From the NCBI GenBank assembly GCA_963783725.1, contig CAWAOJ010000002.1, forward strand, positions 2,045,279 to 2,109,278: a stretch of DNA of 64,000 bases, given 5' to 3'. The position numbers and the translations under genes were made by a program. Each line of letters opens with the position of its first letter. Positions within the stretch are counted from its first letter, which is position 1. The notes beneath the pieces were generated by a model, which made no database searches, had not been told where the DNA came from, and worked only from the letters and a program-made list of their open reading frames with translations. This stretch comes from an uncultured Chloroflexia bacterium. Lineage in GTDB: Bacteria > Chloroflexota > Limnocylindria > QHBO01. This document shows, in pieces, positions 13,568 to 50,529 of this stretch.

Positions 13568-14986
13568 ATGGGGGATTCCCGCGCCCCGTTCCGCCGTTTC
13601 GCCAGCCTTCTGATCGTCCCCGCCCTGGTGGCGCTGATGACGGCGACGTCCGTCGTCCCGGCCATGGCGGTGGGCGGCCAGACCTACGTGCAGCTGACCA
13701 ACGTCAAGCGCGCTTCGGTGGGCAAGCCGCCGGTCGCCTTCTCCTCGGCGATCGACCAGATCACCGTCGAGCGCGCGCAGCAGCTCGCCTCCACCGACGT
13801 CTTCGCCCATGACCTGGCCTACGTCACGCGGCGCATGACGCAGCTCGGCCTCTGCTACACCGGCTATGGCGAGATCATCGCCTGGGAGAGCGGCTACGCG
13901 ACCTACGACTACCAGCGCACGATCAACCAGTGGTGGGCGTCGCCCACCCACCAGGCGATCATGCTCGGCGACTACAACGCCGCCGGCGGAAGCCACGCCA
14001 AGTCGAGCGCCAGCGGCAAGACCTACTCGGTGATGGTCTTCGCCAAGCTGTGCCAGGCGCCGGCCGTGACCGCCAGCGACGTCTCGCGACTGGCCGGCAG
14101 CGACCGATATGCCACCGCCGCCGCAATCAGCCGCTCGCGCTTCGCCGCCGGCGTGCCGGTCGTCTACCTCGCCACCGGCGTCGGCTTCCCCGACGCGCTC
14201 TCGGCTGCAGCCGCGGTGGCGAGCAAGGACGGGCCGGTGCTGCTCACCGCGCGCGACGCCCTTCCCTCCGCCACCGCGACCGAGCTCGCGCGCCTGAAGC
14301 CGGCCCGCATCGTGGTCGTCGGCGGCACCGGGGTCATCTCGGACGCCGTCGCTCGCGCCGCCGACGCGTACACCGCCGGTTCGGTGACCCGCCTGGCGGG
14401 CGCGGACCGCTACGCCACCGCGGCGGCGGTCAGCCGCTCCAGCTTCAGCAGCGGCCGGCCGGTCGTGTACATCTCCACGGGACAGCAGTTCGCCGATGCT
14501 CTCGGTGGCAGCGCGGCCGCGGGACGCGACGGCGGGCCGATCCTCCTCGTCCAGCGCGGAAGCGTGCCGTCCTCGACGGCGACCGAGCTCGCGCGCCTCA
14601 AGCCAGGACGCATCGTCGTGCTCGGTGGCTCCGCCGCGGTGAGCGACGCGGTCGTCGCCGCGCTCTCGCGCTACGCCTCCGGTGGCGTCACGCGCATCGC
14701 CGGCAGCGATCGCTACGCGACCGCGGTCAAGCTGAGCCGCGCCGGCTTCGCCTCGGACGCGGCGAGCGTGTACGTGGCGACAGGGGCGAAGTTCGCCGAC
14801 GGGCTGGCCGGCGGCCCGGTGGCCGCGCTCCTGCCGGCGCCGCTGCTGCTCGTCACCTCGACCACCGTCCCGTCGGCGGTCGGCAGCGAGGTCCAGCGCC
14901 TGGCGCCGGACCGAATCGTCGTCCTGGGCGGCAGCGAGGTCGTCTCGAACTCGGTGGTGCAGCAGCTCGACGCGCTGGTGCCCTAG
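13568..14986 (+). CDS. Secreted CAP/SCP/PR-1-like domain protein with three CWB2 repeats.
   Basis: Signal peptide, then a CAP-like block (HDLAYV...[14 protein letters not shown]...[12 protein letters not shown]) and three CWB2 repeats. A GGAGA SD precedes the ATG. Confidence 0.75.
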
Positions 14987-17319: not shown

Positions 17320-17393
17320 CGTCGATGCACCCGGCGGCCCGAGCGCGTGGGCACTCGCCTCGACCCGTCGGAGTTCCCGGAGCCCCAGCCATC

Positions 17394-20260
17394 GTGTCGC
17401 GATCCCGCTCGGTCGTCCTCAGCCTCGTCCTGCTCGCCACCTCGGCACTCCCCGCCGCCGCCGCCTCGCCATCGCCGGCGGCGACGACCGGCGCGCCAGC
17501 CCGCGCCAAGCAGGCAGCCACGCCCGCGGCACGCTTTGTTCCGGGTCGCGTCATCGTGCGCTGGAAGGACCCCGTCGTCGGGCCGGCGCGCGAGAAGGCG
17601 CACGGACTGGCGCGCTTGGTGACGCTGCCCGGCCCCGGCGCGCCGGGCCTGCTCGGCACGAAAGGGAAGGGCGTCGGCAAGACCGTCGCCGAGCTGCGGG
17701 CCGATCCCGCCGTCGCCTGGGCGCAGCCCGACTACATCGTCAGCGCCGAGGGGGGGAGGTGAGCGCGGTGGGGGTGAACGACCCGCTCACCACCAGGCAG
17801 TACTCGCTCGACCGGATGCGGGTGCGTGACGCATGGTCGCTCACCAAGGGCGGATCGACGGTCGTGGCGGTGGTCGACACCGGCGTGCAGTTCAACCATC
17901 CCGACCTGCAGGGACGGCTGCTCGGCGGCTACGACTTCGTGAACCGCGACTCCGACGCCAGCGACGACAACGGGCACGGCACCTGGGTCTCCGGGGTCAT
18001 CGCCGCCAACCCCAACAACGGGATCGGCACGGCGGGCATCACCTGGACCAACAAGGTGCTGCCGGTCAAGGTCATGGACGCCACGGGACACGGCATGACG
18101 TCGGACCTCGCGCTGGGGATCGACTACGCCGTCCAGCACGGGGCCAGGATCATCAACCTCAGCCTGGGCGGCTTCCCGGACGAGTACCTCGTCAAGGACG
18201 CCATCAGCCGTGCCTGGACCGCCGGGGCCGTCGTCGTGGCGGCCGCCGGCAACTACCGCACCTCGCAGCCCTCGTACCCGGCCAGCTACCCGCACGTGAT
18301 CTCCGTATCGGCGACGCAGGCCGACGACGAGTTCACCAACTGGTCGAACTACGGGCTCAACGTGGACGTCGCCGCGCCCGGCGCCGCGGTGACCACCACC
18401 AACTGCAACGCGTGCAACGGCTGGGGCGACTACACCGACATCAGCGGCACCTCGTTCTCGACGCCCAACGCGGCGGGGGTGGTGGCGCTGATCATGGCCC
18501 GCTACCCTGCTGCCACCAACTCGTGGGTCGTGGACCGGCTGCTCGGAACGGCCGACGACCTGGGCTTCGCCGGCTGGGACGACCGATACGGGCGCGGCCG
18601 GATCAACGCCTGGCGCGCGGTCGGCGGCTCGCCACCCGCGACGGCCGCCCAGATCGGGGACGGGTGGGAGCTCAACCAAGCCCCCGGCACCGCTCGCAGC
18701 CTTGGTTTCGGCACCTTCTCGCCCACCAACTACCCTGCCGGCGACGTGGACTTCTTCCGCTTCACTGCGCCGCGCGCGGGCCGCATCGACGTCGCGGTAA
18801 CGCCAGTGGTCGACAGCGTGCGGCTTCCCAAGAGCTCCCTCTCGTTCGACCCGATGCTCGAGCTGTGGGTCAACGGCGCTTTGGTCAAGAGCGTGGACAA
18901 CCCGACCGATTCGACGGCCGTCGAGCGCGTTTCGTACCAGGCCGCCGGGCCGACCGCGATCGTGATCGGCGTGCGCAACTGGCTGCCCAACGGCAGCAGG
19001 GTCGCCTATCCGCTCTCGGGCGCCTTCGTCGACAACGTCGCGCCGACCATCGTCGCCCGATCCCCCGGACCGGGGGTCTCGGGCTTCGGTGACGGCAGCG
19101 TGACGCCCACCATCTCGTTCAGCGAAGCGGTGAGCGGCGTCGGCGCGACGACGCTCGGCCTGCGCAACGCTGCGGGCGCGGCCATCACCGCATCGGTCAC
19201 CTACGACGCGGCGCAGCGGCGCGCGACGATCACCCCGCAGTGGCCGCTCGGCGGCGAGCAGACGTTCAGCGTGGTCGTCGGTCCTGGCATTCGCGATCTC
19301 GCGGGCAACGCGCTCGCCGCCACCTCGTGGCAGTTCACCACCGGCCAGCTCGCCTATCGCCTCGCCGGCGCGAACCGCTATGCGACCTCGGCGACGCTCA
19401 GCGCCGCCACGTTCGCGCCGGGCGTTCCGGCCGCCGTGCTGGCCACCGGGAGCGGATATCCCGACGCGCTGGCGGGCGCGTCGCTCGCCAAGCGGCTCGG
19501 TGGCCCCGTGCTCCTGGTCGGCCGTGACGCCATCCCTGCGGCGGTCGCGGCGGAGCTCTCACGACTGCGACCGGGGCGCATCGTCGTCCTGGGCGGCACC
19601 GCCAGCATCAGTTCCGCCGTCGCGACCGCGGCGGCCGGCTACACCTCCGGTGGCGTGACGCGCATCTCGGGCAGCGACCGCTACGCCACGGCGTCGGCGG
19701 TCAGCGCGAAGACCTCTTCCCCGGGCGTCGCCACCGCCTACGTGGCGACAGGCCTGGGCTTCCCCGACGCGCTCGCCGGTGCGGCGGTCGCGGCACGCGA
19801 CGGCGCGCCGGTGCTGCTCGTGAGCCGCTGGTCGGTCCCGGCCAGCACGGCGGCCGAGCTGACGCGGCTGCATCCGGGCCGGATCGTGGTGCTGGGCGGC
19901 AGCGCGGTGGTCTCGGACGGCGTGCTGACGGCGCTGCGCGGCTACACCGCGGGCGGCGTGTCGCGCCTCGCCGGCAGCGACCGCTACGCGACCGCGGTGG
20001 CCATCAGCGCCGCGAACTTCGCCGCCAACGGTCCCGACACGGTCTACGTCAGCGCCGGGGCGAACTTCCCCGACAGCCTGTCGGCCGGACCGATAGCGGG
20101 GCGCGGCGCCGACCCCGTGCTGCTCGTGCCGCGGACGTCGCTGCCGAGCGCCGTGGCGGCCGAGATCGCGCGTCTCAACCCATCGCAGGTCGTGGTCATC
20201 GGCGGCAGCGCGTCGGTCAGCGATGCGGTGCGCGGGGCGATCCAGGCGCTGCTGGACTAG
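17394..20260 (+). CDS. Secreted subtilisin-like (S8) serine peptidase: I9-type propeptide, S8 catalytic domain, SbsA-type Ig-like domain and three CWB2 repeats; frame break at a G7 run (17751-17757).
   Basis: The propeptide ORF (frame 0, stop at 17760-17762) and the catalytic region (frame 2: VVDTGV...HGT...GTS) are split at GGGGGGG. A GTG start at 17394 gives the signal peptide [23 protein letters not shown]. Confidence 0.7.
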
Positions 20261-20325: not shown

Positions 20326-20921
20326 ATGAACGACCGCGCGTCCGTGCGCATCCACCCCACGGCCGAGGTCTCGCCGAGGCGAGCATCGGTCCCGGCACCA
20401 GCATCTGGAACCAGGCCCAGGTGCGCGAGGGTGCTCGCATCGGGGCTGGCTGCGTCGTCGCCAAGAACGTCTACGTCGATGCCGGCGTGGTCGTCGGGGA
20501 CAATGTCAAGATCGGCAACAACGTCAGCCTCTTCCACGGATTGACGGTGGAGGACGGCGTCTTCATCGGTCCTCACGTCTGCTTCACAAACGACCGGCTG
20601 CCACGCGCCATCAACCCCGATGGCTCGCTGAAGGGCGCGGACGACTGGGAGGTCAGCCCCACCCTGGTGCGCCACGGCGCGTCGCTGGGGGCCAACAGCA
20701 CCATCCTGCCCGGCATCACCATCGGCCGATGGGCGATGGTCGGCTCGGGAGCGGTGGTGACCCGCGACGTGGCCGACAACGAGCTGGTGGTCGGCAACCC
20801 GGCGCGCCGTCTCGGCGGGGCCTGCCGCTGCGGCCAGCCGCTGCGCGACGCCGCCGACGGCACGCCCTTCACGGGCGAATGCCCGCGCTGCGGCGAGCCG
20901 TTCACCGCGGGCGCCAGGTGA
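20326..20921 (+). CDS. Left-handed beta-helix (hexapeptide-repeat) sugar N-acetyltransferase, WbpD/PglD-like; single-base frameshift near 20370-20380.
   Basis: [16 protein letters not shown] in frame 1 continues as [15 protein letters not shown]... in frame 0. The break looks like one missing G in ccgGaggcg. Confidence 0.7.
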
Positions 20922-22024
20922 AGGTTCTCTCCGTCGTCGGCGCGCGGCCGCAGTTCGTCAAGGCGGCGCCGGTCAGCCGTGCGCTGCGCGACGACCACCA
21001 GGAGGTGCTGGTCCACACCGGCCAGCACTACGACGACGCGATGAGCGCCGCGTTCTTCCGCGACCTCGAGATGGCGCCGCCCGACGTCAACCTCGAGGTC
21101 GGCAGCGGGTCGCACGCGGCGCAGACGGCGGAGATGCTGCGCAGGCTCGAGCCGGTCGTGCTCGAGCACGAGCCGGACGCGATCCTGGTCTACGGCGACA
21201 CGAATTCGACTCTGGCAGCCGCCGTCGTCGGCAGCAAGGTCGCCTATCCCGACGGACGGCGACCGTGGATGGGGCACGTCGAGGCGGGCCTGCGGTCGTT
21301 CAACCGCGCCATGCCCGAGGAGCGCAACCGCATCGTGGCCGACCACCTCGCCGACCTGCTGCTCGCCCCGTCGGCGGCCGCGGTCGAGCACCTCGCGCGC
21401 GAGGGCCTGGCCGATCGCAGCGAGCTCGTCGGCGACGTGATGGTGGACAGCCACATGTGGGCCACGGAGCGCAGCAGCGCGCACCTTCCGCAGGAGGCGC
21501 GTCACGCGCCGGGCTATCTGCTGCTCACCCTGCACCGCGCCGAGAACGTGGACGACGCAGCGCTGCTGACGGCGTGGATGCGCGCGCTGGCCGTCGCCGA
21601 GCCGATCATCTTCCCGGCGCATCCCCGCACGCGCGCAGCGCTCGAGCGAGCGGGAATCGCGCCGCCGCCCAACGTGCGCCTCATCGAGCCGGTGGGGTAC
21701 CTCGAGATGGTCGCGCTGGAGGCGAGCGCGCGCGCGGTGCTGACCGACTCGGGCGGCGTGCAGAAGGAGGCGTATCTCTCGAGAGTGCCGTGCCTCACCC
21801 TTCGCGGCGAGACGGAGTGGGTCGAGACCGTGGCCGCGGGATGGAACCGTCTGGTCGGGCCGGGTGAGGGCGAGCTGGCATCCGCGCTGAGCGACGACGA
21901 ATTCATGCGCCGTGATCGCCCGCGCCCCGAGCTCTACGGCGACGGCCGCGCCGCGTCGCGTATCGTGGCAGCGCTCGAACGACAGCAGATGCGGCGGCAG
22001 CGCCGTCCGGAGGTGGTGGCTTGA
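20918..22024 (+). CDS. wecB: Non-hydrolysing UDP-GlcNAc(-derivative) 2-epimerase (WecB/WbpI-like).
   Basis: [17 protein letters not shown] and DSGG.QKE motifs. The GTG start overlaps the upstream stop (GTGA). Confidence 0.85.
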
Positions 22025-23124
22025 TCCCGATCGCGCGCCCGCAGATGGGCGAAGAGGAGAAGGAGATGGTGGCGCGCACGCTCGACTCGGGCGTGCTGGC
22101 GCAGGGGCCGCGCGTGGCCGAGCTCGAGGCCGCCTTCGCGGCCTTCGTGGGCGTGCCGCACGCCATCGCCACCTCGTCGGGGACGACCGCGCTGCACCTG
22201 GCGCTGCTCGGCTACGGCATCGGTCCCGGGGACGAGGTCATCACCGTCCCGTTCACCTTCATCGCCAGCGCCAACTCCATCCTGTACACGGGAGCGCGCC
22301 CGGTCTTCGTCGACATCGACGAGGCGAGCTTCGACATGGATCCCGCACTGATCGAGGCGGCGATCACGCCGCGCACCAAGGGGATCATGCCGGTCAGCCT
22401 GTACGGCAACCCGGCCGACATGCCGCGCATCACCGAGATCGCCGGGCGCCACGGCCTGGTGGTGATCGAGGACGCGGCACAGGCGCACGGCGCGGCCATC
22501 GACGGCCGGCGGTCGGGCAGCTGGGGCGCCGGGGCCTTCAGCTTCTACCCGACCAAGAACATGACCACCGGCGAGGGCGGGATGGTCACCACCGCCGACG
22601 CCGCGCTGGCCGAGCGGGTTCACCTGCTGCGCGAGCACGGCATGAAGGTGCGCTACCACCACGACATCCTGGGCTACAACTTCCGCATGACCGATGTGCA
22701 CGCCGCGATCGGGCTCGCCCAGCTGCCGAAGCTGGCGGCCAACAACGCGCGTCGGATCGAGATCGCGGAGCGCTACGGGCGCGAGCTGCGCGGCGTGATC
22801 ACGCCGAGCGTGCGTCCCGGCGTGACGCACGTCTTCCACCAGTACACGATCCGGGTCAACCGCCGCGACGAGTTCGCCGAACGGCTGCGCCAGCGCGGCG
22901 TCGGGACGGGCATCTTCTACCCGATCCCGGTGCACCACCAGAAGCCGTTCATCGAGCTCGGCTACGGCGACCAGTCGTACCCGGTCACCGAGCGGCTGAC
23001 GGAGCAGGTGATCTCGATCCCGGTGCATCCCACGCTCAGCGACGACGAGGTCGCGGCGGTGATCGCGGCGGTGAACGAGACGGCGATCGCGCTCGGTCCC
23101 CTGGCCGCCGCGGTGAGCGCATGA
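22021..23124 (+). CDS. DegT/DnrJ/EryC1-family PLP-dependent sugar aminotransferase (WbpE-like).
   Basis: The N-terminus [19 protein letters not shown] and the SSGTTALHLAL block match the family. TTG start with a TTGA overlap. Confidence 0.8.
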   Translation: MIPIARPQMGEEEKEMVARTLDSGVLAQGPRVAELEAAFAAFVGVPHAIATSSGTTALHLALLGYGIGPGDEVITVPFTFIASANSILYTGARPVFVDIDEASFDMDPALIEAAITPRTKGIMPVSLYGNPADMPRITEIAGRHGLVVIEDAAQAHGAAIDGRRSGSWGAGAFSFYPTKNMTTGEGGMVTTADAALAERVHLLREHGMKVRYHHDILGYNFRMTDVHAAIGLAQLPKLAANNARRIEIAERYGRELRGVITPSVRPGVTHVFHQYTIRVNRRDEFAERLRQRGVGTGIFYPIPVHHQKPFIELGYGDQSYPVTERLTEQVISIPVHPTLSDDEVAAVIAAVNETAIALGPLAAAVSA

Positions 23125-24170
23125 GGGACGGCCGCCGGCTGCGCGCCGGCGTGGTGGGGCTGGGCATGATGGGACGCAACCACGTCCGCGTCTACGACGA
23201 GCTGCTCGACGACGTGGAGCTGGTCGCGGTGGCCGACGCCTCGCCGGAGGCCGTGACGCGCGCCACCGCCGGTCGCGCGGCGCGTGGCTACACCGACGCC
23301 GGGCGCATGTTCGCGGAGGAGGAGCTGGACCTGGTGAGCGTGGTGGTGCCGACGTCGCTGCACCTGCCGCTCACCCTGGCGGCGCTCGACGCCGGGGCGC
23401 ACGTCCTGGTCGAGAAGCCGATCGCCGGCCGCCGCGACGAGGCGGAGAAGATGATCGAGGCGGCGCAGGCGGCAGGACGGATCCTCAGCGTCGGCCACAT
23501 CGAGCGCTTCAACCCGGCCATCCGCGAACTCAAGCGCCGCCTGGAGGCGGGTGAGCTCGGCCGGCTGTTCCAGATCAAGGCGACGCGGCTGGGGCCGTTT
23601 CCGGCGCGGATTCGCGACGTGGGGGTCGTGATCGACCTCGCGCCGCACGACCTCGACATCATGCGCTACCTGATCGGCAGCGACCCGGTGCGGCTCTACG
23701 CCGAGACGGAGCAGCGCATCCACACCGATCACGAGGACCTTTTCAGCGGCATCCTCAAGTTCGCCAACGGGGTCATCGGCGTGCTCGACATCAACTGGCT
23801 CACGCCGACCAAGCAGCGAACGCTGTCGGTGACCGGCGAGCGCGGGATGTACGTCGCCGACTACATCGGCCAGGACCTGGTCTTCTTCGCCAACCCGGAC
23901 GCCACGCACACCTGGCGCAACCCTGGCGCCTCGGCCGCCTCGCCGGTCAACTCGGTCGCCGAGGGCGAGATGACGCGTCGCTACGTCAAGCGCGAGGAGC
24001 CGCTGGCGGTGGAGCTCAGCGAGTTCGCGCGTGCCGCTCGGTCGGGCGGCCCGCCGCCGGTCGATCCGCACGACGCCATGGTCGCCCTGCTGCTGTCGCA
24101 GAAGATGGTCGAGGCGGGCGAGACGGGCCGCGTCATCGACGGCGCGGCCCTGGCGGAGGCGCTGGCATGA
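23121..24170 (+). CDS. Gfo/Idh/MocA-family NAD-dependent sugar 3-dehydrogenase (WbpB-like).
   Basis: GVVGLGMMGRNH Rossmann motif and an EKP...GHIERFNP block. ATGA overlap at the start. Confidence 0.8.
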   Translation: MRDGRRLRAGVVGLGMMGRNHVRVYDELLDDVELVAVADASPEAVTRATAGRAARGYTDAGRMFAEEELDLVSVVVPTSLHLPLTLAALDAGAHVLVEKPIAGRRDEAEKMIEAAQAAGRILSVGHIERFNPAIRELKRRLEAGELGRLFQIKATRLGPFPARIRDVGVVIDLAPHDLDIMRYLIGSDPVRLYAETEQRIHTDHEDLFSGILKFANGVIGVLDINWLTPTKQRTLSVTGERGMYVADYIGQDLVFFANPDATHTWRNPGASAASPVNSVAEGEMTRRYVKREEPLAVELSEFARAARSGGPPPVDPHDAMVALLLSQKMVEAGETGRVIDGAALAEALA

Positions 24171-25447
24171 GGATCGCGGTGGTGGGGCTGGGACACATCG
24201 GCCTGCCGCTGGCGGTGCAGTACGCCAGCCGCGGCCACCAGGTCGTGGGCTGCGACACCGCCGCCTGGATCGTCGAATCCATCAACCGCGGCGAGTCGCC
24301 GCATGACGACGAGCAGGCGCTGGTCGAGCGGGTGCCGCAGCTCGTCGCAGCGGGCAACCTGCGCGCGACGACCGACGACGCCGAGGGCGTCCGCGGGGCC
24401 GAGGCGGTGGTCGTCATCGTGCCAGTGGTGGTGGACGCGCAGCGCGAGATCGACTTTCGGCCCATCGACGCCGCGACGCGCGACATCGCGGCCGGGCTCC
24501 AGCCGGGAACGCTGGTGGTGTACGAGACGACACTGCCGGTCGGCACCACGCGCGACCGCTTCGGACCGATGCTGGCCGAGGGCAGCGGCCTGGAGCGCGA
24601 CGGAGACTTCTTCCTCGCCTTCTCCCCGGAGCGGGTGCTGGTCGGCCGCGTCTTCACTGACCTTCGGCGCTACCCGAAGATCGTGGGCGGGACGAGCGAC
24701 GAGAGCACGCGACGCGCGACCGAGTTCTATCGGTCCGTGCTCGACGAGGGCACCGACGTGTGGGCCGTCGCGAACGCGGAGACCGCGGAGATGACCAAGC
24801 TGGCCGAGACGACCTACCGCGACGTCAACATCGCCTATGCCAACGAGCTGGCCCGCTACGCCGCGAAGCGCGGCATCGACGTGCTGGAGGTCATCGGCGC
24901 GGCGAACTCGCAGCCGTACAGCCACATCCACCAGCCGGGCGTGGGCGTCGGCGGTCACTGCATCCCGGTCTACCCGCACTTCCTGTTCAACGGCGACCCC
25001 TCGCTGCGCATCCCGCCCCTGGCGCGGGAGATCAACGAGGAGATGGCGGCCTGGACGGTGGACGCGGTGGAGGACGTGGTCGGATCGCTCGACGGCGTGC
25101 CGGTGCTCGTGCTCGGCGTCGCGTACCGGGCCGACGTGCGCGAGGACGCCTTCTCGAGCGCCTTCCGGCTGCGCGACGAGCTGCTCGCGGCGGGTGCCAC
25201 CGTCTACGGCCACGATCCGTACTTCGACGCGCAGCACCTGCGCTCGCTGGGCTTCGAGCCGTACGACCTGGCCGATCCGGCCCCCGCCAGGGTGGCCATC
25301 CTGCAGGCCGGCCACGAGGCATATCGGCAGCTCGACCCGGGTGCCATCCCGCGCCTGGAGCTCTTCGTCGACGGGCGCAACGCCCTCGACCCCGCGCCGT
25401 TCGAGGCCGCCGGGGTGCGCTACCTGGGCGTGGGTCACCGCAGCTGA
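24167..25447 (+). CDS. UDP-N-acetyl-D-glucosamine/mannosamine 6-dehydrogenase (WbpA/WecC family).
   Basis: MRIAVVGLGHIGLPLA N-terminus and the UDP-glucose/GDP-mannose dehydrogenase family architecture. ATGA overlap at the start. Confidence 0.8.
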   Translation: MRIAVVGLGHIGLPLAVQYASRGHQVVGCDTAAWIVESINRGESPHDDEQALVERVPQLVAAGNLRATTDDAEGVRGAEAVVVIVPVVVDAQREIDFRPIDAATRDIAAGLQPGTLVVYETTLPVGTTRDRFGPMLAEGSGLERDGDFFLAFSPERVLVGRVFTDLRRYPKIVGGTSDESTRRATEFYRSVLDEGTDVWAVANAETAEMTKLAETTYRDVNIAYANELARYAAKRGIDVLEVIGAANSQPYSHIHQPGVGVGGHCIPVYPHFLFNGDPSLRIPPLAREINEEMAAWTVDAVEDVVGSLDGVPVLVLGVAYRADVREDAFSSAFRLRDELLAAGATVYGHDPYFDAQHLRSLGFEPYDLADPAPARVAILQAGHEAYRQLDPGAIPRLELFVDGRNALDPAPFEAAGVRYLGVGHRS

Positions 25448-25457
25448 GCCGATCGCG

Positions 25458-26231
25458 GTGACGCAGGTCGAGGAGGCGCCCAGCGTGGGACTGGCGGCCG
25501 GCCGGGGAGTGTGGGTGGTGCTGCCCACCTACAACGAGCGCGAGAACCTGCAGCTCGTCAGCCGTGCCATCCTCGAGTCGCTGCCGCAGGCCAACCTGCT
25601 CGTCGTCGATGACGACTCGCCCGACGGGACGGGGGCGCTCGCCGACGAGCTTGCGCACCTCGAGCCGCGCGTCAGCGTCCTGCATCGGCCGCGCAAGCAG
25701 GGCCTGGGCGCCGCGTACCGCGAGGGGTTCCGCTGGGTGCTCGATCGGCCAGACGTCCGCGCGGTGGTGCAGATGGACGCCGACTTCAGCCACGACCCCG
25801 ACGACCTGCCGCGCCTGCTGTCTCCGCTCATGCGCGAGGCGGACCTGGTGCTCGGCACGCGCTACGTGCGCGGCGGCGCGACCGTCGGCTGGCCGCTCCA
25901 TCGGCGCCTGATCAGCCGGGCCGGGACATTGTTCGCGCGCACCGTGCTGCTGCTGCCCTACCGAGATCTGACCGGCGGCTTCAAGGCGTGGCGCCGCGAG
26001 CTGCTGGAGTCGATCCGCCTGCGCGAGGCGGCGGCCTCGGGCTACGGCTTCCAGATCGAGACGACGTGGTGGGCGCACCGCCGCGGCGCGACGATCGTGC
26101 AGGTGCCCATCGTCTTTCGCGAGCGCGTGGCGGGGCACTCCAAGATGAACTCGGGCATCGTGCGCGAGGCGCTGCTGATGGTGCTTCGCCTGCGCTGGGA
26201 CGCCGTGCGCGGCCGAGCGCCGCGGGCATGA
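25458..26231 (+). CDS. GT2 polyprenyl-phosphate sugar synthase (Ppm1/DPM1-like).
   Basis: VVLPTYNERENL, VVDDDSPDGTG, DADFSHDP and the C-terminal FKAW motifs. The GTG start is tentative; an alternative is 25485. Confidence 0.7.
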   Translation: MTQVEEAPSVGLAAGRGVWVVLPTYNERENLQLVSRAILESLPQANLLVVDDDSPDGTGALADELAHLEPRVSVLHRPRKQGLGAAYREGFRWVLDRPDVRAVVQMDADFSHDPDDLPRLLSPLMREADLVLGTRYVRGGATVGWPLHRRLISRAGTLFARTVLLLPYRDLTGGFKAWRRELLESIRLREAAASGYGFQIETTWWAHRRGATIVQVPIVFRERVAGHSKMNSGIVREALLMVLRLRWDAVRGRAPRA

Positions 26232-26319: not shown

Positions 26320-28083
26320 ATGTCCTTCCGCAACCGTTCCGTCCTCAATCGCAAGCATCGTCCCCGCTGGCAGGACGAGCTGCGCAGCCAGCAGCTCATC
26401 GTCGCCGGCTTCGCCGTGGCCATCGCGCTCGCCCTCGGCATCTTCGGCGCCACGGTCTGGAACAGCTACTACGACGCGCACCTGCGACAGATCGCCCTGG
26501 TCGGCGACGCGTCGCTGGATCGCGATGCGCTCGGCACCCGCCAGCGCGCAATGGCGGCAGAGCTCAACGCCAAGGGCGTCGACCTGCAGTCGCAGCAGGG
26601 CGGGGCCCGCGACGCGGTGATCAAGCAGCAGCTGGACGTCGTCAGCGGCCAGCTGCAGACGCTCGCCAGCGACGCCACCACGTCCCTCGTGGACGGCACC
26701 TTCATGCGCGAGCGCGCGGCGGCGGCCGGGATCTCCGTCAGCGACGCGGAGATCGACGCCGAAGTCAAGGCGCGCCAGGACCTGCCGCGCCGCCTCAAGC
26801 TGCTCAGCATCTCGATCTCGGCCCTGCCGGCCGACGCGAAGGGCGGGACGACGCCGACCGACGCTCAGTGGAGCGCCGCGCAGAAGGAGGCGAACGACGT
26901 GCTCGCCCAGCTGCGAGCGGGCGGTGACTTCGCTGCGCTGGCCAAGGCGCACTCGAATGATGCCGCCACCAAGGACAACGGCGGGCTGATCGGCTGGGTG
27001 CAGGCCGCCGACGCGACGTACGGCAAGCAGTTCGACGCCGCGAAGGCCGCCAAGGTGGGCGACCTGGTAGGACCGGTCAAGACCGATGCGGGTTATCAGA
27101 TCCTGCGCGTCGACGACGAGCGCAAGGGCGGGTCCGACCCGGTCTTCAAGTCGCTGCTCACCGGCGCGGGCATCGGCGAGGACGCGTATCGCAGCTACAT
27201 CCACGACGAGCTGCTGCGCCGCAAGTTCACCGACTACTTCGGGGCGAGCGTGGTCAAGGCCAACCAGCCGCAGCGCAAGATCGCCCAGATCCTGATCGCC
27301 CCCGACGACCAGGGCGTGCCGGTGCCGAAGCTGCACCTGCGCCACATCCTCGTCCAGCCGCTTCCCGGCGCCAGCGACCAGAGCAAGGCCACCCCCGCGC
27401 AGTGGGCGGCCGCGCTCGAGAAGGCGAAGAAGATCCGCGTCGAGGCGGCCAAGCCCGATGCGGACTGGTACGCGCTCGCCAAGCAGAGCGACGACCAGGC
27501 GAACGCCACCCGCGCCGGAGACCTCGGCTGGTACGACCCCGCCACGTCCACCTTCGTCAAGGAGTTCAAGGACGCGGTGCGCACGCTGCGCGTCGGCCAG
27601 GTCAGCCAGCCGGTGAAGACCTCATTCGGCTACCACATCATCAAGGTCGTCGGCGAGCGCCTGCGCGCTGCCGACCAGGCCGAGCAGCTGATCACCCAGC
27701 TCAAGAAGGACCCCGGCAGCTTCGCCGCGCTGGCGCGTGACAACAGCGAGGACAGCGGCACCGCCGCCAAGGGCGGCGAGGTCGGCTGGGTCGCCCACTA
27801 CGAGCTGCCCGCGGAGCAGGACCAGGCGGTCTTCGCGCTCACCAAGAAGGACCAGATCAGCGACCCGGTCGTCACCAGCACCGGTACGTACATCTACAAG
27901 CTGCTCGACAGCAGTGACAGCATGCCGGTCTCGGATGCCCGGCAGGCGCAGATCAAGCAGAACGGGTTCCCGCGCTGGCTCGACGAGCAGAAGAAGTCGG
28001 CCAACATCTGGGTCGATCCGCAATACGCCTCGACCTCCTCGAGCACGGCCAGCAGCGGCTCCGGCGTCAGCACCGGCGGTTGA
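26320..28083 (+). CDS. Membrane-anchored SurA/PrsA-like peptidyl-prolyl cis-trans isomerase with two parvulin domains.
   Basis: An N-terminal TM segment and two PpiC-type blocks (GYQILRV..., FGYHIIKV...). Confidence 0.7.
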   Translation: MSFRNRSVLNRKHRPRWQDELRSQQLIVAGFAVAIALALGIFGATVWNSYYDAHLRQIALVGDASLDRDALGTRQRAMAAELNAKGVDLQSQQGGARDAVIKQQLDVVSGQLQTLASDATTSLVDGTFMRERAAAAGISVSDAEIDAEVKARQDLPRRLKLLSISISALPADAKGGTTPTDAQWSAAQKEANDVLAQLRAGGDFAALAKAHSNDAATKDNGGLIGWVQAADATYGKQFDAAKAAKVGDLVGPVKTDAGYQILRVDDERKGGSDPVFKSLLTGAGIGEDAYRSYIHDELLRRKFTDYFGASVVKANQPQRKIAQILIAPDDQGVPVPKLHLRHILVQPLPGASDQSKATPAQWAAALEKAKKIRVEAAKPDADWYALAKQSDDQANATRAGDLGWYDPATSTFVKEFKDAVRTLRVGQVSQPVKTSFGYHIIKVVGERLRAADQAEQLITQLKKDPGSFAALARDNSEDSGTAAKGGEVGWVAHYELPAEQDQAVFALTKKDQISDPVVTSTGTYIYKLLDSSDSMPVSDARQAQIKQNGFPRWLDEQKKSANIWVDPQYASTSSSTASSGSGVSTGG

Positions 28084-28090
28084 GGGCCGC

Positions 28091-29191
28091 GTGGCAGTAC
28101 CCGCGCGCACGGTTGACGAGCTGCTGGCGGCCGCCGGCGTCGATCCCGCCGACGGCGTGCAGCTGGCATCGGCGAGTCGGCTGCCGGGCCTCGCCTTCGA
28201 CCCGGCCCTGCCGCTCCTCATCTTCGCCTCCGACGAGCCGCCGTCGGACGCGCTCCCCGGGCGTCACGCGCGCAGCGGCCCGCTCGAGGTGCTGGACGCC
28301 CTCTACCCGCCCGCGCACCGGCTTCGAAGGCTGGACTCGGGCGACGAGGTCGCGCTGCAGGACCTGACCGATGCGGACCTCGCCGCGCACGACTGGCTCG
28401 TCCCGGCGCTGCCCGCCCTCGAGAACCTTGCCTCTCCGCACGGCATGGCGGCCATCAGCGCGCGCCTGCGCGCTCCCGACGGCTGTCCCTGGGACCGGCG
28501 CCAAACGCACGCCACGCTGCGGCCGTTCGTGCTGGAGGAGGCGTACGAGACCGTCGACGCCATCGAGAACGGCGCGCCGGCGGACCTCGCCCAGGAGCTC
28601 GGCGACCTGCTGCTGCAGATCATCCTGCATGCCCAGCTCGCCGCCGAGGCGGGCGAGTTCGACCTCACCGACGTCTACCGCTCCATCGGCGCCAAGATCG
28701 TGCGACGCCACCCGCACGTCTTCGGCGAGGTCGAGGTGAGCGGCGTCGAGCAGGTGCTCGCCAACTGGGAGACGATCAAGGCCGCCGAGCGCAGCGACGC
28801 CGGACAGGATGCGGGCCCCTTCGCCGGGGTCGCGCGGGCGCTGCCCGCCCTTGCGGCCAGTCGCGAGATCCAGGAGCGCGCGGCGGCGCTGGGCTGGGAC
28901 TGGCCCTCGGTCGAGGGCGTGTGGGACAAGGTGCGCGAGGAGCTGGGAGAGCTGGCCGCCGCCGAGGACCCCGCCGCGCGCCTGCACGAGCTGGGTGACG
29001 TCCTGTTCGTGCTGGTCAACCTGGCGCGCTGGCTGAGGCTCGATCCCGAGGAGTCGCTGCGAGCGGCGAACCATCGCTGGATCCGGCGCTTCGAGGCGGT
29101 CGAGTCCCTCGCGGTCGAGCGCGGCGACGACCCGCGCGCGCTGAGCGCGGAGGCGCGCGACGAGCTGTGGGAGGCGGTGAAGGACCGATGA
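28091..29191 (+). CDS. mazG: MazG-family nucleoside triphosphate pyrophosphohydrolase with an N-terminal extension.
   Basis: Tandem MazG EExxE blocks (VLEEAYE..., ELGDLLLQ..., ELGDVLFVLV...). GTG start inferred. Confidence 0.75.
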   Translation: MAVPARTVDELLAAAGVDPADGVQLASASRLPGLAFDPALPLLIFASDEPPSDALPGRHARSGPLEVLDALYPPAHRLRRLDSGDEVALQDLTDADLAAHDWLVPALPALENLASPHGMAAISARLRAPDGCPWDRRQTHATLRPFVLEEAYETVDAIENGAPADLAQELGDLLLQIILHAQLAAEAGEFDLTDVYRSIGAKIVRRHPHVFGEVEVSGVEQVLANWETIKAAERSDAGQDAGPFAGVARALPALAASREIQERAAALGWDWPSVEGVWDKVREELGELAAAEDPAARLHELGDVLFVLVNLARWLRLDPEESLRAANHRWIRRFEAVESLAVERGDDPRALSAEARDELWEAVKDR

Positions 29192-30366
29192 GCGGCGAGC
29201 GAATCGCCATCGTGGTGCACGCCGTCTTTCCCGGCGACCCGCGAATCCATCGCCAGACCGATGCGCTGCTGGCGGCCGGGCACGAGGTGGATGTCTTCTG
29301 CCTGCGCGAGCCGGGCGAGCCGGCCCGGGAGGTCGACGGCGCGCTGCGCATCGTGCGGCTGCCGGTGACGCGCAGCTTCATGGGCTTTGCGGGCCACATG
29401 GCGGAGTACCTCGCCTTCGCCGGCATGGCGGCCGTCCGACTCACGGCCGAGCAGCGCCGGCGTCACTATCGGCTGGTGCAGGTGGCCACCGTCCCGGACT
29501 TCCTGGTCTTCTCGGCCGCAGCCCTCAGGCTCGCCGGCGTTCCGCTGCTGCTCGACCTTCACGAGGACATGCCCGAGTTCTTCCGCGACCGATTCGCGCA
29601 TCCGCTGCTGCGGCCGCTGCTGCCGCTCGTCAGCGGAGCCGCGCGCGCATCGGCCGCCGTGGCCGACGCGATCATCACCGTCCACGAGCCGCTGCGCCAG
29701 CTGTCGATCGCCCGCGGCGTGCCGCCGGACAAGATCAGCGTGGTCATGAACAGCGCCGACGACGCGCTCTTCGATCCGAGCCGCCACGCGCGCCGCGCGT
29801 TCATGGCCGACGGCGAGCTGCGGGTCATCCATCACAGCAACCTGCAGCGCATCTACGGCCTCGACATCGCGGTCGAGGCGGTCGCCATGCTGCGCGACGA
29901 GCTCCCCCTGCGGCTCGACGTCTACGGCGACGGGCCGTTCCGTCCCGACGTCGAGGCCGCCATCGCACGCACCGGGACCGCGGACCGGGTCCACCTCAAC
30001 GGCCGCGTCCCGCTGGTCGACCTGCCGGCGCTCATCGCCGGATCGGACGTCGGCATCGTGCCGTCGCGCGACGAGCCGTACCTGCGCTACTCGCTCTCGA
30101 CCAAGCTGCTCGAGTACGCCGCCATGGGCATCCCGATCGTCGCCTCGGACCTCGCCACGTTCCGCAGCCACTTCACCGACGACGCGCTCTTCTACGTTCC
30201 CGGCGGCGACCCCGCCGCGCTGGCTGCCACGTTGCGGACGGTCGCAGCCGACGCCGAGGCGGCGGCGCGACGTGGAGCCGAGGCGCGCCGGCAGGCAGCC
30301 GCCTACGCCTGGGCCGAGCAGCGCGCCGCCTACCTCTCGGTGGTCGAGGGGTTGCTCAGCCGCTGA
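29188..30366 (+). CDS. GT4-family glycosyltransferase.
   Basis: GT4 fold blocks, including a C-terminal E..KLLEY.AMG.PIVASD block. ATGA overlap with mazG. Confidence 0.75.
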   Translation: MSGERIAIVVHAVFPGDPRIHRQTDALLAAGHEVDVFCLREPGEPAREVDGALRIVRLPVTRSFMGFAGHMAEYLAFAGMAAVRLTAEQRRRHYRLVQVATVPDFLVFSAAALRLAGVPLLLDLHEDMPEFFRDRFAHPLLRPLLPLVSGAARASAAVADAIITVHEPLRQLSIARGVPPDKISVVMNSADDALFDPSRHARRAFMADGELRVIHHSNLQRIYGLDIAVEAVAMLRDELPLRLDVYGDGPFRPDVEAAIARTGTADRVHLNGRVPLVDLPALIAGSDVGIVPSRDEPYLRYSLSTKLLEYAAMGIPIVASDLATFRSHFTDDALFYVPGGDPAALAATLRTVAADAEAAARRGAEARRQAAAYAWAEQRAAYLSVVEGLLSR

Positions 30367-30372
30367 GGCTGC

Positions 30373-31824
30373 TCACGGCAGCTGGACGAGACAGAGGGTC
30401 TTCCAGCCCCACGGCGTGCACAGGCGGCTGGTCCTCGCGGCCCACGCCTCGGGATGCGACTGCGCCAAGCCCGGCGCGGCGCGGTTGACGGTGACGACCC
30501 ATCGAACCCCGCGCGTACGGTACAGGTCGCCGCCGTTCACGCCGCTGTCTGGCCGCGAGACGAGGATTCGCACCGGCGCGCTCATCGCCAGCAGCGGCGC
30601 GTACTCGCCCTCGACCGATGCGCCGCGCGGGACCGTGGCCGCGACGGCCTGCTGGAGCGCCGGCAGTCGCGAGGTCGCGCTGCGGACCCAGCCGCCATAG
30701 GCCAGCACGCCCGGCAGGACCAGCGCGATGCAGAGCGCCCCGACCGCCACTGCCCCCGCGATGCCTCGAGCGTGGAGCCGGCGAAGCAGGTCCGCCGCCG
30801 CGAAGCCCGCCAGGATGGCCAGCGGCGGGAGCAGCGGCTCGATGTAGCGGCTGGGGCGGTAGGGAGACACCAGCATCGCCGCCATGCCGACCCCGAACCA
30901 GCCCAGCGAGGCACCGATCAGCAGGCGTTCGGCGCGTTCCAGCCGGCGCCATGAGCGAACCGCCAGCACGGTTCCGGCGAGTGCCGCCAGGAGCAGTGGC
31001 AGGGACAGCGGCAGGAACTGGTCGCTGCTGAACAGGTACTCCCAGGCGCGCTGCCAGGGCGGCGCCGGCCTGGTGGCCAGGTCGGGCCAGATCCGCAGGT
31101 CGGTCAGCACGCGCTCCCAGCGCGGCAGGGCGACGAGCGCGAACCAGCTCAGCCCCACCACCGCGCCGGTGGCCGCGGTGACGGCAAGCCGCGACAGCGC
31201 GCGGCGGTCGCGGATTGTTCCCGCCAGCAGGACGCCGATCAACGCTCCGGCCACCGCGAACACGGCGCTCGGCTTGGTGAGCACCGCGCCGGAGTAGGCG
31301 ATGCCGGCGAGCAGGCCCATGCGGATCGCGCCGTCCCGGGGTCGCGCGACGAGCGCGACGGTGCCGAGGACCAGCAGCAGCATCACCATCTGCTCCAGGT
31401 ACACCAGCCGCCCGTAGTACAGAACCACCACGTTTGCGGCAAGCCCGAGGGCCGCCACGGCGCCTCCGGCCGTCCCGAAGCGACGCGTGGCGAGCAGCCC
31501 GACGCCCGCCACGCTTGCCACCGTCATCAGCAGCGCGACCACGCGCGCCTGGATGATCCCGACGCCGAACACGGAGAAGACCCCCGCCAGCGTGACGCTG
31601 AACGGCAGGTTGACCAGGTGCAGGTTCCAGTCGTCAGTCGCCCACGTGCCGAGCAGGACCAGGTTCCTGGCATTGAGCGCGTTGTAGCCCTCGTCCGTGA
31701 ACGGCGAGGTGCTCGCGGTGAACGCGTTGGCGGGGTCCGTGGCGAGCATCGCGAGCAGCGCCAGCAGCAGCAGCGCGGCGGGAAGCAGCGGCAGCAGCCA
31801 GTCGAGCCGCCGCGCTCTGCTCAC
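30373..31824 (-). CDS. Polytopic membrane glycosyltransferase of the GT-C superfamily (PMT/ArnT-like, lipid-carrier-dependent).
   Basis: 483 aa with about 11 TM segments and an early-loop acidic motif FTDEGYNALNARN, as in GT39/GT83 enzymes. Confidence 0.6.
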   Translation of the reverse strand: MSRARRLDWLLPLLPAALLLLALLAMLATDPANAFTASTSPFTDEGYNALNARNLVLLGTWATDDWNLHLVNLPFSVTLAGVFSVFGVGIIQARVVALLMTVASVAGVGLLATRRFGTAGGAVAALGLAANVVVLYYGRLVYLEQMVMLLLVLGTVALVARPRDGAIRMGLLAGIAYSGAVLTKPSAVFAVAGALIGVLLAGTIRDRRALSRLAVTAATGAVVGLSWFALVALPRWERVLTDLRIWPDLATRPAPPWQRAWEYLFSSDQFLPLSLPLLLAALAGTVLAVRSWRRLERAERLLIGASLGWFGVGMAAMLVSPYRPSRYIEPLLPPLAILAGFAAADLLRRLHARGIAGAVAVGALCIALVLPGVLAYGGWVRSATSRLPALQQAVAATVPRGASVEGEYAPLLAMSAPVRILVSRPDSGVNGGDLYRTRGVRWVVTVNRAAPGLAQSHPEAWAARTSRLCTPWGWKTLCLVQLP

Positions 31825-31954: not shown

Positions 31955-32031
31955 CGGGGCGTAGCACAGCCTGGTAGCGCACCTGCTTTGGGAGCAGGAG
32001 GTCGCCGGTTCGAATCCGGCCGCCCCGACCA
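31955..32031 (+). tRNA. tRNA-Pro (anticodon TGG).
   Basis: A cloverleaf was folded by hand: 7-bp acceptor stem, anticodon loop TTTGGGA (anticodon TGG, G37), T-loop TTCGAAT, a 5-nt variable loop, and a 3' ACCA. The D-stem has one A-C mismatch. Confidence 0.85.
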
Positions 32032-35526: not shown

Positions 35527-35540
35527 CCGACGGCGACGCC

Positions 35541-39984: not shown

Positions 39985-40076
39985 CGGCCGATGCTAGACC
40001 CCCGCTGCCGTGGCGAAGGGGTGATTTCGCTATACTCGCCGCCGCCGGCGCGGGCCGGCGCACAGGTCGAGGGCCC

Positions 40077-50528: not shown

Positions 50529-50529
50529 G

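Follow-up and report, generated by a model that had tools for sequence, protein, structure and literature searches.

The 64,000-nucleotide stretch of DNA analysed here (the window) contains six co-directional genes on the + strand, g1 to g6, whose order is as the first-pass annotation had given it and each of which is backed by GC3 frame analysis. The families are, from g1 to g6, Hexapep, Epimerase_2, DegT_DnrJ_EryC1, GFO_IDH_MocA, UDPG_MGDP_dh (N, central and C domains) and Glycos_transf_2, and the genes are as follows.

20326..20921, + strand: g1, WlbB/WbpD-type left-handed beta-helix N-acetyltransferase (Hexapep; repaired protein compared with WlbB), with a 1-nt deletion near 20375-20377
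20918..22024, + strand: g2, predicted UDP-GlcNAc3NAcA 2-epimerase, WbpI/WlbD type (8SXY match; TIGR00236)
22021..23124, + strand: g3, DegT-family PLP aminotransferase with a TTG start, putative 3-aminotransferase (PF01041, 435 bits)
23121..24170, + strand: g4, predicted Gfo/Idh/MocA UDP-GlcNAc(A) 3-dehydrogenase, MMP0352/GnnA/WlbA type (NF040723; 7BVJ, 3Q2K, 3Q2I)
24167..25447, + strand: g5, predicted UDP-N-acetylhexosamine 6-dehydrogenase, WbpA/WecC subgroup of NDP-sugar dehydrogenases (TIGR03026; 4R16)
25458..26231, + strand: g6, short (257 aa) DPM1/Ppm1-like GT2 polyprenyl-phosphate glycosyltransferase (PF00535; 5MLZ)

The claim that nearly every junction is a 4-nt start/stop overlap holds for four of them (g1/g2 GTGA, g2/g3 TTGA, g3/g4 ATGA and g4/g5 ATGA), but g5 and g6 are separated by a 10-nt spacer (stop at 25447, GTG at 25458). 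High-GC genomes commonly show such overlaps within their operons, and by themselves they mean little; the real evidence against a chance arrangement is the conserved gene set. The closest relatives are metagenome-assembled genomes (MAGs) of Candidatus Limnocylindria (Chloroflexota), not Actinobacteria or Firmicutes, and the whole neighbourhood is syntenic there, so the organism is a Chloroflexota rather than one of the Gram-positives envisaged in the first-pass annotation. All six genes occur in the same order in four related MAG loci (L001, L003, L005 and L006), flanked by rph-rdgB and prsA-mazG-GT4, while L004 and L007 carry a subset of this order and reach the contig edge, and L002 and L008 keep the order without g3 (L008 between the same flanks). 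The six genes form an operon that is conserved and belongs to the genome of an uncultured soil bacterium of Candidatus Limnocylindria.

The first gene of this operon does not read through. Its ATG at 20326, preceded by GGAGG 5 nt upstream, is out of frame with the stop at 20921 and opens a frame that closes after about 72 codons, and the only in-frame starts for that stop are an ATG at 20223, which overlaps the upstream gene and has no coding signal, and a GTG at 20421, which would give a truncated 166 aa product. A DNA alignment with six orthologous loci placed one missing base at GTCTCG-CCGAGG, around position 20375; g1 is intact in all six of the aligned relatives, and the repaired protein has WlbB (3MQG, E 2.5e-39) as its best match, in an alignment that spans the shift. 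The missing base thus breaks the acetyltransferase gene in the sequence as it stands, and the description of the five-enzyme pathway as complete, although right in that all five enzyme families are present, was overstated.

At least five further conserved genes of the window are split by indels, one of which falls in a G7 run, yet their coding signal is still strong and their family scores are high, making an assembly error likely; a rate of nine or more indels over 64 kb agrees with an error-prone assembly, and the 2.24-Mb source contig is consistent with, but no proof of, assembly from long reads. We consider it quite likely, though not proven, that the g1 shift is a homopolymer-type assembly error, and with this as the best explanation the pathway is probably whole in the living organism. 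Should the gene be truly inactivated, in a decaying or phase-off glycan locus for the same pathway, synthesis would stop at UDP-GlcNAc3NA, or another acetyltransferase would be needed. This seems unlikely to us, although the frameshift is present in the sequence as given, every gene found with a frameshift has an envelope, glycan or secreted-protein role, several of them have at least two lesions (a DUF3048 gene, a third dehydrogenase and a second epimerase), and the G7 run, the window's only one, is where the S8 subtilase gene is shifted (at ~17752), a phase-variation kind of tract. Against these points, the g1 indel sits in a C run of 2-3 bases rather than in a long tract, the five other operon genes are intact and align over their full length to orthologues, the broken genes keep a strong GC3 periodicity and family scores (373 bits against TIGR03026 for the third dehydrogenase after repair) that would be unexpected in old pseudogenes, and the density of indels and the size of the contig are in keeping with an error-prone, long-read assembly, as above.

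The substrates of g3, g4 and g5 are proposed from comparisons. The product of g5 exceeds the cutoff of TIGR03026 (313 bits), and its top scores, among models as among structures, are with UDP-ManNAc dehydrogenases (4R16 and Cap5O are among its PDB matches), while JGI names its orthologues UDP-N-acetyl-D-glucosamine dehydrogenase; its earlier assignment as a UDP-GlcNAc 6-dehydrogenase is sound as to the 6-dehydrogenase family, but the libraries cannot separate the UDP-GlcNAc from the UDP-ManNAc type. For g4, likewise, a Gfo/Idh/MocA 3-dehydrogenase was correctly proposed but not its WbpB type: the curated family that fits best is NF040723, archaeal UDP-GlcNAc 3-dehydrogenase (292 bits, with the next family at 132 and the cutoff of 450 not reached), the best PDB matches are 7BVJ (3e-30), 3Q2K and 3Q2I, the last two of which we take to be WlbA entries, and no PDB match at E <= 1e-10 is named WbpB or T. 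thermophilus 3-dehydrogenase. We therefore rejected g4 as a WbpB orthologue and place it with the archaeal MMP0352/GnnA/WlbA type; JGI names its orthologues UDP-N-acetylglucosamine 3-dehydrogenase.

The g3 product belongs to the DegT family, as claimed, but is not specifically WbpE-like, since it scores 250-294 bits against all of DesV, QdtB, perosamine synthases, ArnB and WbpE, and WbpE is outscored by DesV, the perosamine synthases and an inositol transaminase. Sequence comparison does not fix its position specificity, and we regard it as a putative 3-aminotransferase. Its best NCBIfam matches, PseC and ArnB, and the JGI names of its orthologues (generic, "perosamine synthetase" or "dTDP-4-amino-4,6-dideoxygalactose transaminase") might instead point to bacillosamine/QuiNAc4N, perosamine or another 4-amino-6-deoxy sugar. 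Such a route, of which the first-pass annotation had named UDP-QuiNAc4N/bacillosamine as an example, is very improbable: every specific g3 match is under its family cutoff, all six operon genes fill other roles, and no rival-route enzyme was found, there being no 4,6-dehydratase or SDR enzyme in the operon or among the scanned window ORFs. Furthermore, among 42 full-length loci of the g4 family from bacteria and archaea, a DegT homologue lies beside the Gfo/Idh/MocA 3-dehydrogenase in 37.

These loci also hold an LbH acetyltransferase (30/42), a 6-dehydrogenase (25/42) or an epimerase (15/42), and many have the 3-dehydrogenase/aminotransferase/acetyltransferase module without 6-dehydrogenase or epimerase. 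The operon might serve two products, UDP-ManNAcA from g2 and g5 working as a pair of the WecB/WecC kind, and UDP-GlcNAc3NAc, with no uronic acid, from g4, g3 and g1, on the model of lipid A GlcN3N or archaeal-type routes; the best scores of g5, and the nearest curated family of g4, which acts on UDP-GlcNAc itself, would agree with this. We think it improbable on account of the epimerase. The best PDB match of g2 is the Thermus thermophilus UDP-GlcNAc3NAcA 2-epimerase 8SXY, an enzyme of biochemically proven function (347 bits, E 1e-102), compared to 249 bits (M. jannaschii) and ~139 bits (E. coli) for UDP-GlcNAc 2-epimerases, and it scores 276 bits against TIGR00236, over its cutoff. Ala18, Tyr96 and Trp307 are the substrate determinants of the T. 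thermophilus enzyme (Thoden 2023, PMC10622841), and all three are present in g2 as A16, Y92 and W301, the Trp taking the place of the Arg by which the 3-OH of UDP-GlcNAc is bound and the Ala/Tyr pair being linked to a bulkier substrate. They are kept in all seven Limnocylindria orthologues with the N-terminus on the contig, of the 23 cluster-linked epimerases covering the position of the Trp, 22 have it, and clusters that lack a 6-dehydrogenase have epimerases with other residues at K15, A16 and Y92. The second epimerase, elsewhere in the window, is canonical and WecB-like, with Arg at the position of the g2 Trp, and adjoins another dehydrogenase, which makes g2 the specialised copy. The proposal of a WbpI-type 2-epimerase is thus upheld by the 8SXY match and the three determinants, and the epimerase is the strongest evidence for a UDP-ManNAc3NAcA route.

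The operon therefore probably makes UDP-ManNAc3NAcA by a Wbp/Wlb-type route, for a cell-wall polymer, the g1 shift being an artefact; this core reading, followed by a Ppm1/DPM1-like GT2, was that of the first-pass annotation and holds with the epimerase, the WlbB-like g1 and the 5MLZ-like g6. C6 would be oxidised by g5 and C3 by g4, in a relative order that the data do not set; after C3 oxidation g3 would transaminate C3, g1 would then N-acetylate it, and g2, judging by the active-site residues of the epimerase, would act last, epimerising C2 on the 3-N-acetylated uronic acid. The pathway itself is already well known, with five-enzyme precedents in P. aeruginosa and T. thermophilus, and what the sequence shows of it here is the families and order of the genes, their synteny, the determinants in the epimerase and the g1 frameshift, whereas the substrates of g3, g4 and g5, the fate of the product and the g6 donor are inferred.

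The Ppm1-like GT2 adjacent to these genes is confirmed by PF00535 and by its sole PDB match, the archaeal dolichol-phosphate mannose synthase of P. furiosus (5MLZ, 3e-35), although g6 aligns only to the catalytic part (residues 25-251 of the 374-residue chain) and is too short for the C-terminal membrane region. It comes straight after g5 in every Limnocylindria locus reaching past g5. Its scores against the PpgS, AglJ and DPM-like models are all far under cutoff and do not assign a donor sugar. The predicted GT-C gene was also found:

30373..31824, - strand: GT-C (PMT_2) membrane glycosyltransferase (PMT_2, E 7.7e-10)

We suggest that g6 makes a polyprenyl-phosphate monosaccharide and that the GT-C enzyme is the likely user of this lipid-linked sugar outside the membrane. 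A DPM1-type GT2 with a GT-C gene 4 kb away resembles known pairs of polyprenyl-phosphate sugar synthase and GT-C enzyme (Ppm1/mannosyltransferases, PpgS/Rv3779, ArnC/ArnT, GtrB/GtrC); unlike those pairs, g6 is far under the cutoff of every specific family model.

Around the operon lie four CWB2 proteins with three repeats each, the neighbours that had been claimed, together with a WecA-like primer enzyme, two LCP ligases, GT4 enzymes and the GT-C enzyme:

9344-11146, + strand: N-terminal domain of no known family + triple CWB2
11174-13478, + strand: GH18 + triple CWB2, frameshifted at ~12640
13568-14986, + strand: CAP + triple CWB2
17325..20260, + strand: secreted S8 subtilase + Big_5 + 3x CWB2, frameshifted at ~17752
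26320-28083, + strand: PrsA/SurA-like triple-parvulin PPIase, co-directional with the operon
28091-29191, + strand: MazG, co-directional with the operon
29188-30366, + strand: GT4 glycosyltransferase, ATGA overlap with MazG
32055-32993, + strand: WecA/TagO-like polyprenyl-phosphate GlcNAc-1-P transferase
32990-34495, - strand: Wzy_C-domain membrane protein
34495-36867, - strand: LCP ligase + GT1 fusion ORF

The view of the operon product as the ligand of the CWB2 proteins is overstated, as its only basis is this gene neighbourhood, which some relatives do not share (the operon has no adjacent CWB2 gene in L005, L006 or L008). Triple-CWB2 protein genes also adjoin a wall-polymer locus with LCP ligases in Clostridioides difficile (the AP locus beside slpA/cwp), where CWB2 proteins bind the PSII polymer; PSII, however, has no diacetamido uronic acid, and binding of the CWB2 proteins described here to a polymer would be putative.

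These five enzyme families also make up the P. aeruginosa WbpA/B/E/D/I and B. pertussis Wlb pathway, whose end product the operon probably shares, although the 3-dehydrogenase here is from the MMP0352/GnnA/WlbA-like Gfo/Idh/MocA subgroup, unlike P. aeruginosa WbpB. In Methanococcus maripaludis MMP0352 g4 has its nearest family, albeit under the 450-bit cutoff, and archaeal loci join homologues of g4, g3, g1 and g5; archaeal diacetamido-sugar products decorate N-glycans. Thermus thermophilus HB27 likewise has all five families in one cluster (WP_011172736-739 + WP_148187554; PMC10622841), with an epimerase of identical specificity residues but a WbpB-like 3-dehydrogenase (49% identical to WbpB).

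ManNAc3NAcA occurs in the Geobacillus secondary wall polymer and in Streptomyces teichuronic acids, the latter built by the Wbp-like utr cluster (ManNAc3NAcA/GlcNAc3NAcA polymers on wall teichoic acid; PMC13274773). As there, the locus described here has a Wbp-like module in a wall-glycopolymer setting in a bacterium without LPS, and Streptomyces loci are among the g4 homologues (~40% identity); unlike utr, it belongs to another phylum, has CWB2 proteins, a GT-C enzyme and a DPM1-like GT2 in addition, and is without ribitol-phosphate machinery among the scanned window ORFs. The neighbourhood fits a wall-linked teichuronic-acid-like polymer, and, in place of the LPS O-antigen use of the Wbp and Wlb products, UDP-ManNAc3NAcA may in this Chloroflexota bacterium feed a peptidoglycan-linked polymer of that kind, which would be primed by the WecA/TagO-like enzyme, extended by the GT4 enzymes and attached by the LCP ligases.

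The window has a G+C content of 72%, and third-codon-position GC analysis of 20.3-26.2 kb revealed six successive coding frames on the forward strand, as follows.

Genes of the operon
20326-20921 (+), g1, acetyltransferase, Pfam Hexapep, frameshifted
20918-22024 (+), g2, 2-epimerase, Pfam Epimerase_2, GTG start
22021-23124 (+), g3, DegT aminotransferase, Pfam DegT_DnrJ_EryC1, TTG start
23121-24170 (+), g4, 3-dehydrogenase, Pfam GFO_IDH_MocA
24167-25447 (+), g5, 6-dehydrogenase, Pfam UDPG_MGDP_dh, three domains
25458-26231 (+), g6, DPM1/Ppm1-like GT2, Pfam Glycos_transf_2

The first-pass annotation described 4-nt start/stop overlaps at nearly every junction, and these were found as GTGA, TTGA, ATGA and ATGA from g1 to g5, with a 10-nt spacer at the g5/g6 junction; TTG 22021 is the sole start for g3, with no other between the preceding stop at 21913 and 22021. 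Scanning 17-32.5 kb for promoters and terminators gave no signal exceeding that of shuffled sequences and so the boundaries of the operon are drawn from spacing alone. Rfam, tRNA and repeat scans found no element inside the operon, their sole results being a tRNA-Pro (31955-32031) and the periodicity of the CWB2 repeats.

The five-step UDP-ManNAc3NAcA route is a textbook pathway which has been reconstituted in vitro; it is established in Pseudomonas aeruginosa and Bordetella pertussis and has been proposed for Thermus thermophilus. The protein encoded by g2 matched the T. thermophilus UDP-GlcNAc3NAcA 2-epimerase (8SXY) at 347 bits (E 1e-102), compared to 249 bits for the UDP-GlcNAc 2-epimerase of M. 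jannaschii and about 139 bits for that of E. coli. Three residue changes fit the T. thermophilus epimerase to its bulkier substrate, namely Trp307 in place of the Arg that binds the 3-OH, Ala18 for Leu/Met and Tyr96 for His/Gln (Thoden et al. 2023, PMC10622841). W301, A16 and Y92 of g2 align with Trp307, Ala18 and Tyr96 respectively, and the catalytic Asp and the allosteric-site residues are retained in the alignment with 8SXY. All three determinants were common to the 7 of 7 Limnocylindria orthologues whose N-terminus lies on the contig, and the Trp was present in 22 of the 23 cluster-linked epimerases that cover its position, whilst epimerases from clusters without a 6-dehydrogenase have Gln for Lys15 and other residues where g2 has the Ala and the Tyr. 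Lys17 of the T. thermophilus enzyme touches the C6 carboxylate of the substrate, and its equivalent is Lys where the locus has a 6-dehydrogenase (L001-L008, which are related Limnocylindria loci, and L011, L035, L052, L054 and L063 among other loci with g4 homologues) and Gln in L019, L020, L022, L023, L041 and L043, none of which yielded a 6-dehydrogenase (two of them, L019 and L020, being partial loci); it is also Gln in L046, which has a distant 6-dehydrogenase. The residue at this position may be a marker separating GlcNAc3NAcA from GlcNAc3NAc epimerases. The published determinants (Ala18, Tyr96 and Trp307) follow gene context across phyla. A second epimerase in the window (55809-56875, reverse strand), beside another dehydrogenase, is canonical and WecB-like with Arg at the Trp307 position, and so g2 is, judged from these alignments, the specialised copy. 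The epimerase provides the decisive evidence for the identity of the pathway. The g2 enzyme would thus work on a sugar with the 3-N-acetyl group already present, which would most likely already be oxidised at C6, and the operon probably encodes the UDP-ManNAc3NAcA route.

The best family model for g4 was NF040723 (archaeal UDP-GlcNAc 3-dehydrogenase) at 292 bits, below its cutoff of 450, with the runner-up family at 132, and its best structures were 7BVJ, which we take to be GnnA, and 3Q2K and 3Q2I, presumably both WlbA, whose PDB titles read just “oxidoreductase” and “dehydrogenase”. Close orthologues of g4 carry the JGI name UDP-N-acetylglucosamine 3-dehydrogenase, and MMP0352 has been employed as a UDP-GlcNAc dehydrogenase. 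g4 is thus a clear match to Gfo/Idh/MocA at the family level with UDP-GlcNAc(A) 3-dehydrogenases as its nearest specific relatives; the operon uses the same families as the Wbp/Wlb pathway, with a WlbB-like g1, but its 3-dehydrogenase is not of the WbpB type that had been claimed for it. For g5, TIGR03026 scored 313 bits, above cutoff, and the best specific models and structures, from libraries without a WbpA reference, were of the UDP-ManNAc dehydrogenase type and below cutoff; g5 falls in the WecC/Cap5O/archaeal subgroup and some orthologues are named UDP-N-acetyl-D-glucosamine dehydrogenase by JGI. Whether C6 or C3 is oxidised first, the end product is identical. The aminotransferase g3 matched WbpE (3NU7) at 252 bits, with DesV, perosamine synthases, QdtB and ArnB scoring equally or higher, and automated names, informative for g4 and g5, are only generic for its orthologues. 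No 4,6-dehydratase was found in the operon or in the scanned ORFs of the window, on which grounds a bacillosamine or perosamine route was rejected, and this, together with the near-constant pairing of the aminotransferase with a 3-dehydrogenase, argues for g3 acting at C3.

The pathway had been described as complete, and the five enzyme families do lie in the order given for them, but examination of frames and starts found no full-length ORF for g1 in the window sequence. GGAGG lies five bases 5' of ATG 20326, and the frame from this start encodes the N-terminal part of the protein and then nonsense and a stop, the remainder of the beta-helix protein being in a different frame, the one closing at 20921. 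Alignment with six orthologous loci showed that exactly one base is missing, at GTCTCG-CCGAGG near 20375. Two other starts, ATG 20223 and GTG 20421, were rejected, since the GGAGG precedes ATG 20326 and either of them would drop conserved N-terminal turns of the beta-helix; ATG 20223 moreover shows neither coding signal nor a Shine-Dalgarno sequence. The repaired protein, made by joining the two frames, had WlbB (3MQG) as its top PDB match (E 2.5e-39, residues 8-193) in an alignment spanning the junction, placing the predicted product in the WbpD/WlbB-type LbH N-acetyltransferase family, and g1 is a single unbroken match in every related locus that carries it. The original observation is confirmed in part and its interpretation supported in part, the latter by the matches of g2 and of the repaired g1; the differences lie in the character of g4 and in the g1 gene not being intact. 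At its C-terminus (window 20800-20921) g1 encodes a CxCG...CPxCG four-cysteine motif resembling a zinc ribbon, which is kept in Limnocylindria, Dehalococcoidia, some CPR bacteria and archaea and has a degenerate WVGxxG...CPxTG version in WlbB and actinobacterial homologues.

At least six conserved genes of the window are broken by indels, g1 and at least five others, with at least nine frame changes in 64 kb.

Other broken genes
Break near 17752, S8 + CWB2 protease, at the window's only G7 run
Break near 12640, GH18 + CWB2 gene
38830-39993 (-), DUF3048 gene, N- and C-terminal domains in separate frames
54484-55803 (+), third NDP-sugar dehydrogenase, three frames, 373 bits to TIGR03026 after joining
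55809-56875 (-), second UDP-GlcNAc 2-epimerase, at least two frames

Proteins identical to those of g3, g4 and g5 have been deposited, all from one contig of 2,238,515 bp, a size which suggests a long-read assembly. As so many indels hit genes which otherwise appear fully functional, the g1 frameshift is most likely an assembly error. Alternatively, g1 may be a genuine pseudogene, which is the less probable explanation. Every gene so affected belongs to the envelope, glycan or secreted-protein group, and housekeeping genes of the window, including those for MreB, GlnA, RNase PH and GlgB, are intact. Pseudogene calls in such an indel-rich assembly need read-level support.

With one genome taken per species, g4 had its closest relatives, 65-79% identical, in MAGs of Candidatus Limnocylindria and other Chloroflexota. 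The window comes from a Limnocylindria-like genome, and an actinobacterial origin, guessed from the 72% G+C, was rejected on this basis. The gene order rph, rdgB, g1-g6, PPIase, MazG, GT4 was found in L001, L003, L005 and L006 (MazG lying beyond the contig end in L006), of which only L001 and L003 have the S8 + CWB2 gene between rdgB and g1, and L004 and L007 have the identical g1-g4/g5 order as far as the contig end. The arrangement is kept in L008 with g3 missing, and L002 is also without g3. The stretches concerned (L002:1-1724 and L008:8913-10978) have no DegT gene between epimerase and 3-dehydrogenase and retain the rest of the operon; either these two have their aminotransferase gene at another site, or their pathway is a different one. 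Neighbours of g4 homologues were counted across bacteria and archaea, in the 42 loci whose flanks are complete.

Enzymes encoded near g4 homologues
DegT aminotransferase, 37/42 loci
LbH acetyltransferase, 30/42 loci
6-dehydrogenase, 25/42 loci
2-epimerase, 15/42 loci
All five enzymes together, 7/42 loci

This is the pattern expected of a core 2,3-diacetamido-sugar module in which C6 oxidation and C2 epimerisation are optional.

The last gene, g6, encodes a 257-amino-acid GT2 protein (PF00535, 109 bits) whose only PDB match was the P. furiosus dolichol-phosphate mannose synthase 5MLZ (E 3e-35, residues 18-249); the match covers the catalytic part, g6 being too short for the C-terminal membrane region of that enzyme. 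The top NCBIfam models differ in donor (PpgS, which uses UDP-GalNAc, AglJ and a haloarchaeal hexose transferase) and all scored far below their cutoffs, so that the Ppm1-like label holds for fold and reaction type and does not extend to the donor sugar. g6 immediately follows g5 in all Limnocylindria loci reaching past g5, and otherwise seldom occurs near g4 homologues (6 of the 42 full loci, four of these being from Limnocylindria).

The operon is surrounded by the following genes.

Surroundings of the operon
MreB and MreC genes, 5' of the operon
9344-11146, 11174-13478, 13568-14986 and 17325-20260, four proteins with three PF04122 (CWB2) matches each, 5' of the operon
Triple-parvulin PPIase, MazG and GT4 genes, 3' of the operon, same direction
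GT-C (PMT_2) gene, 3' of the operon, opposite strand
31955-32031, tRNA-Pro, 3' of the operon
WecA/TagO-like transferase, then Wzy_C protein and LCP + GT1 fusion ORF, 3' of the operon
Second LCP gene and separate WbaP/UDP-glucose dehydrogenase/GT4 locus, farther 3'

The presence of LCP ligases and CWB2 proteins is in better keeping with a wall-linked polymer than with LPS. The PPIase (26320-28083) is PrsA/SurA-like with three parvulin domains and a SurA_N-like N-terminus, and its gene, followed by MazG, lies directly 3' of the operon in each Limnocylindria locus that extends there. L001, the closest relative, has two tandem GT-C (PMT_2-like) paralogues (17334-20190, reverse strand) compared to one in the window, each 46% identical to the window gene. 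The LCP + GT ORF (34495-36867, reverse strand) encodes 790 amino acids with LCP (LytR-CpsA-Psr) at residues 146-331 and a GT1/GT4-type domain at 614-750, domains usually found on opposite sides of the membrane, and the coding-frame model marks a short odd stretch within it (35570-35772); it could be a true fusion, or two genes fused by an indel. The second polysaccharide locus comprises genes for a WbaP-like protein (48488-49165), a UDP-glucose dehydrogenase (49224-50528) and a GT4 (53352-54491), and a convergent pair (54484-56875) encoding a UDP-HexNAc-type 6-dehydrogenase, 37% identical to g5, and the WecB-like 2-epimerase, both multiply frameshifted. Two stretches, 50444-53344 (about 2.9 kb) and 60425-64000 (about 3.6 kb), have no clear GC3 coding signal and no Rfam or tRNA match, with G+C falling to 0.65 at the 3' end of the window; foreign origin, heavy damage to genes, or genes of different codon usage could account for them.

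There are precedents, the product being already known from wall polymers of Gram-positives. The secondary wall polymer to which S-layer proteins bind in Geobacillus stearothermophilus has ManNAc3NAcA as its acidic residue, in C. difficile the CWB2 protein genes adjoin the locus for PSII, the polymer bound by these proteins, and Streptomyces utr clusters with a Wbp-like module give rise to teichuronic acids with ManNAc3NAcA or GlcNAc3NAcA (PMC13274773). Given these and P. aeruginosa, the locus is a further case of a known pathway, here in an unstudied phylum. The suggestion that its product is the CWB2 ligand is a reasonable analogy drawn from neighbourhood only, and CWB2 genes do not adjoin the operon in L005, L006 and L008; that in Limnocylindria the triple-CWB2 enzymes encoded nearby (protease, GH18 and CAP) have a ManNAc3NAcA-containing teichuronic-acid-like polymer as the wall ligand anchoring them we consider unlikely. 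In a bolder variant, g6 would load polyprenyl phosphate with the diacetamido uronic acid itself, for use by the GT-C enzyme.

To our knowledge, Limnocylindria is a Chloroflexota class with neither a cultured member nor a described wall chemistry, and a term search of one Limnocylindria genomics paper for cell wall, S-layer, envelope, teichoic, monoderm and glycosyltransferase found all of these absent. The value of the operon is descriptive, in that it provides a first testable wall-chemistry prediction for an abundant, uncultured class of soil Chloroflexota; if the anchoring proposal were true, the anchoring of CWB2 proteins to anionic polymers would reach beyond the Firmicutes and would include a new class of ligand.
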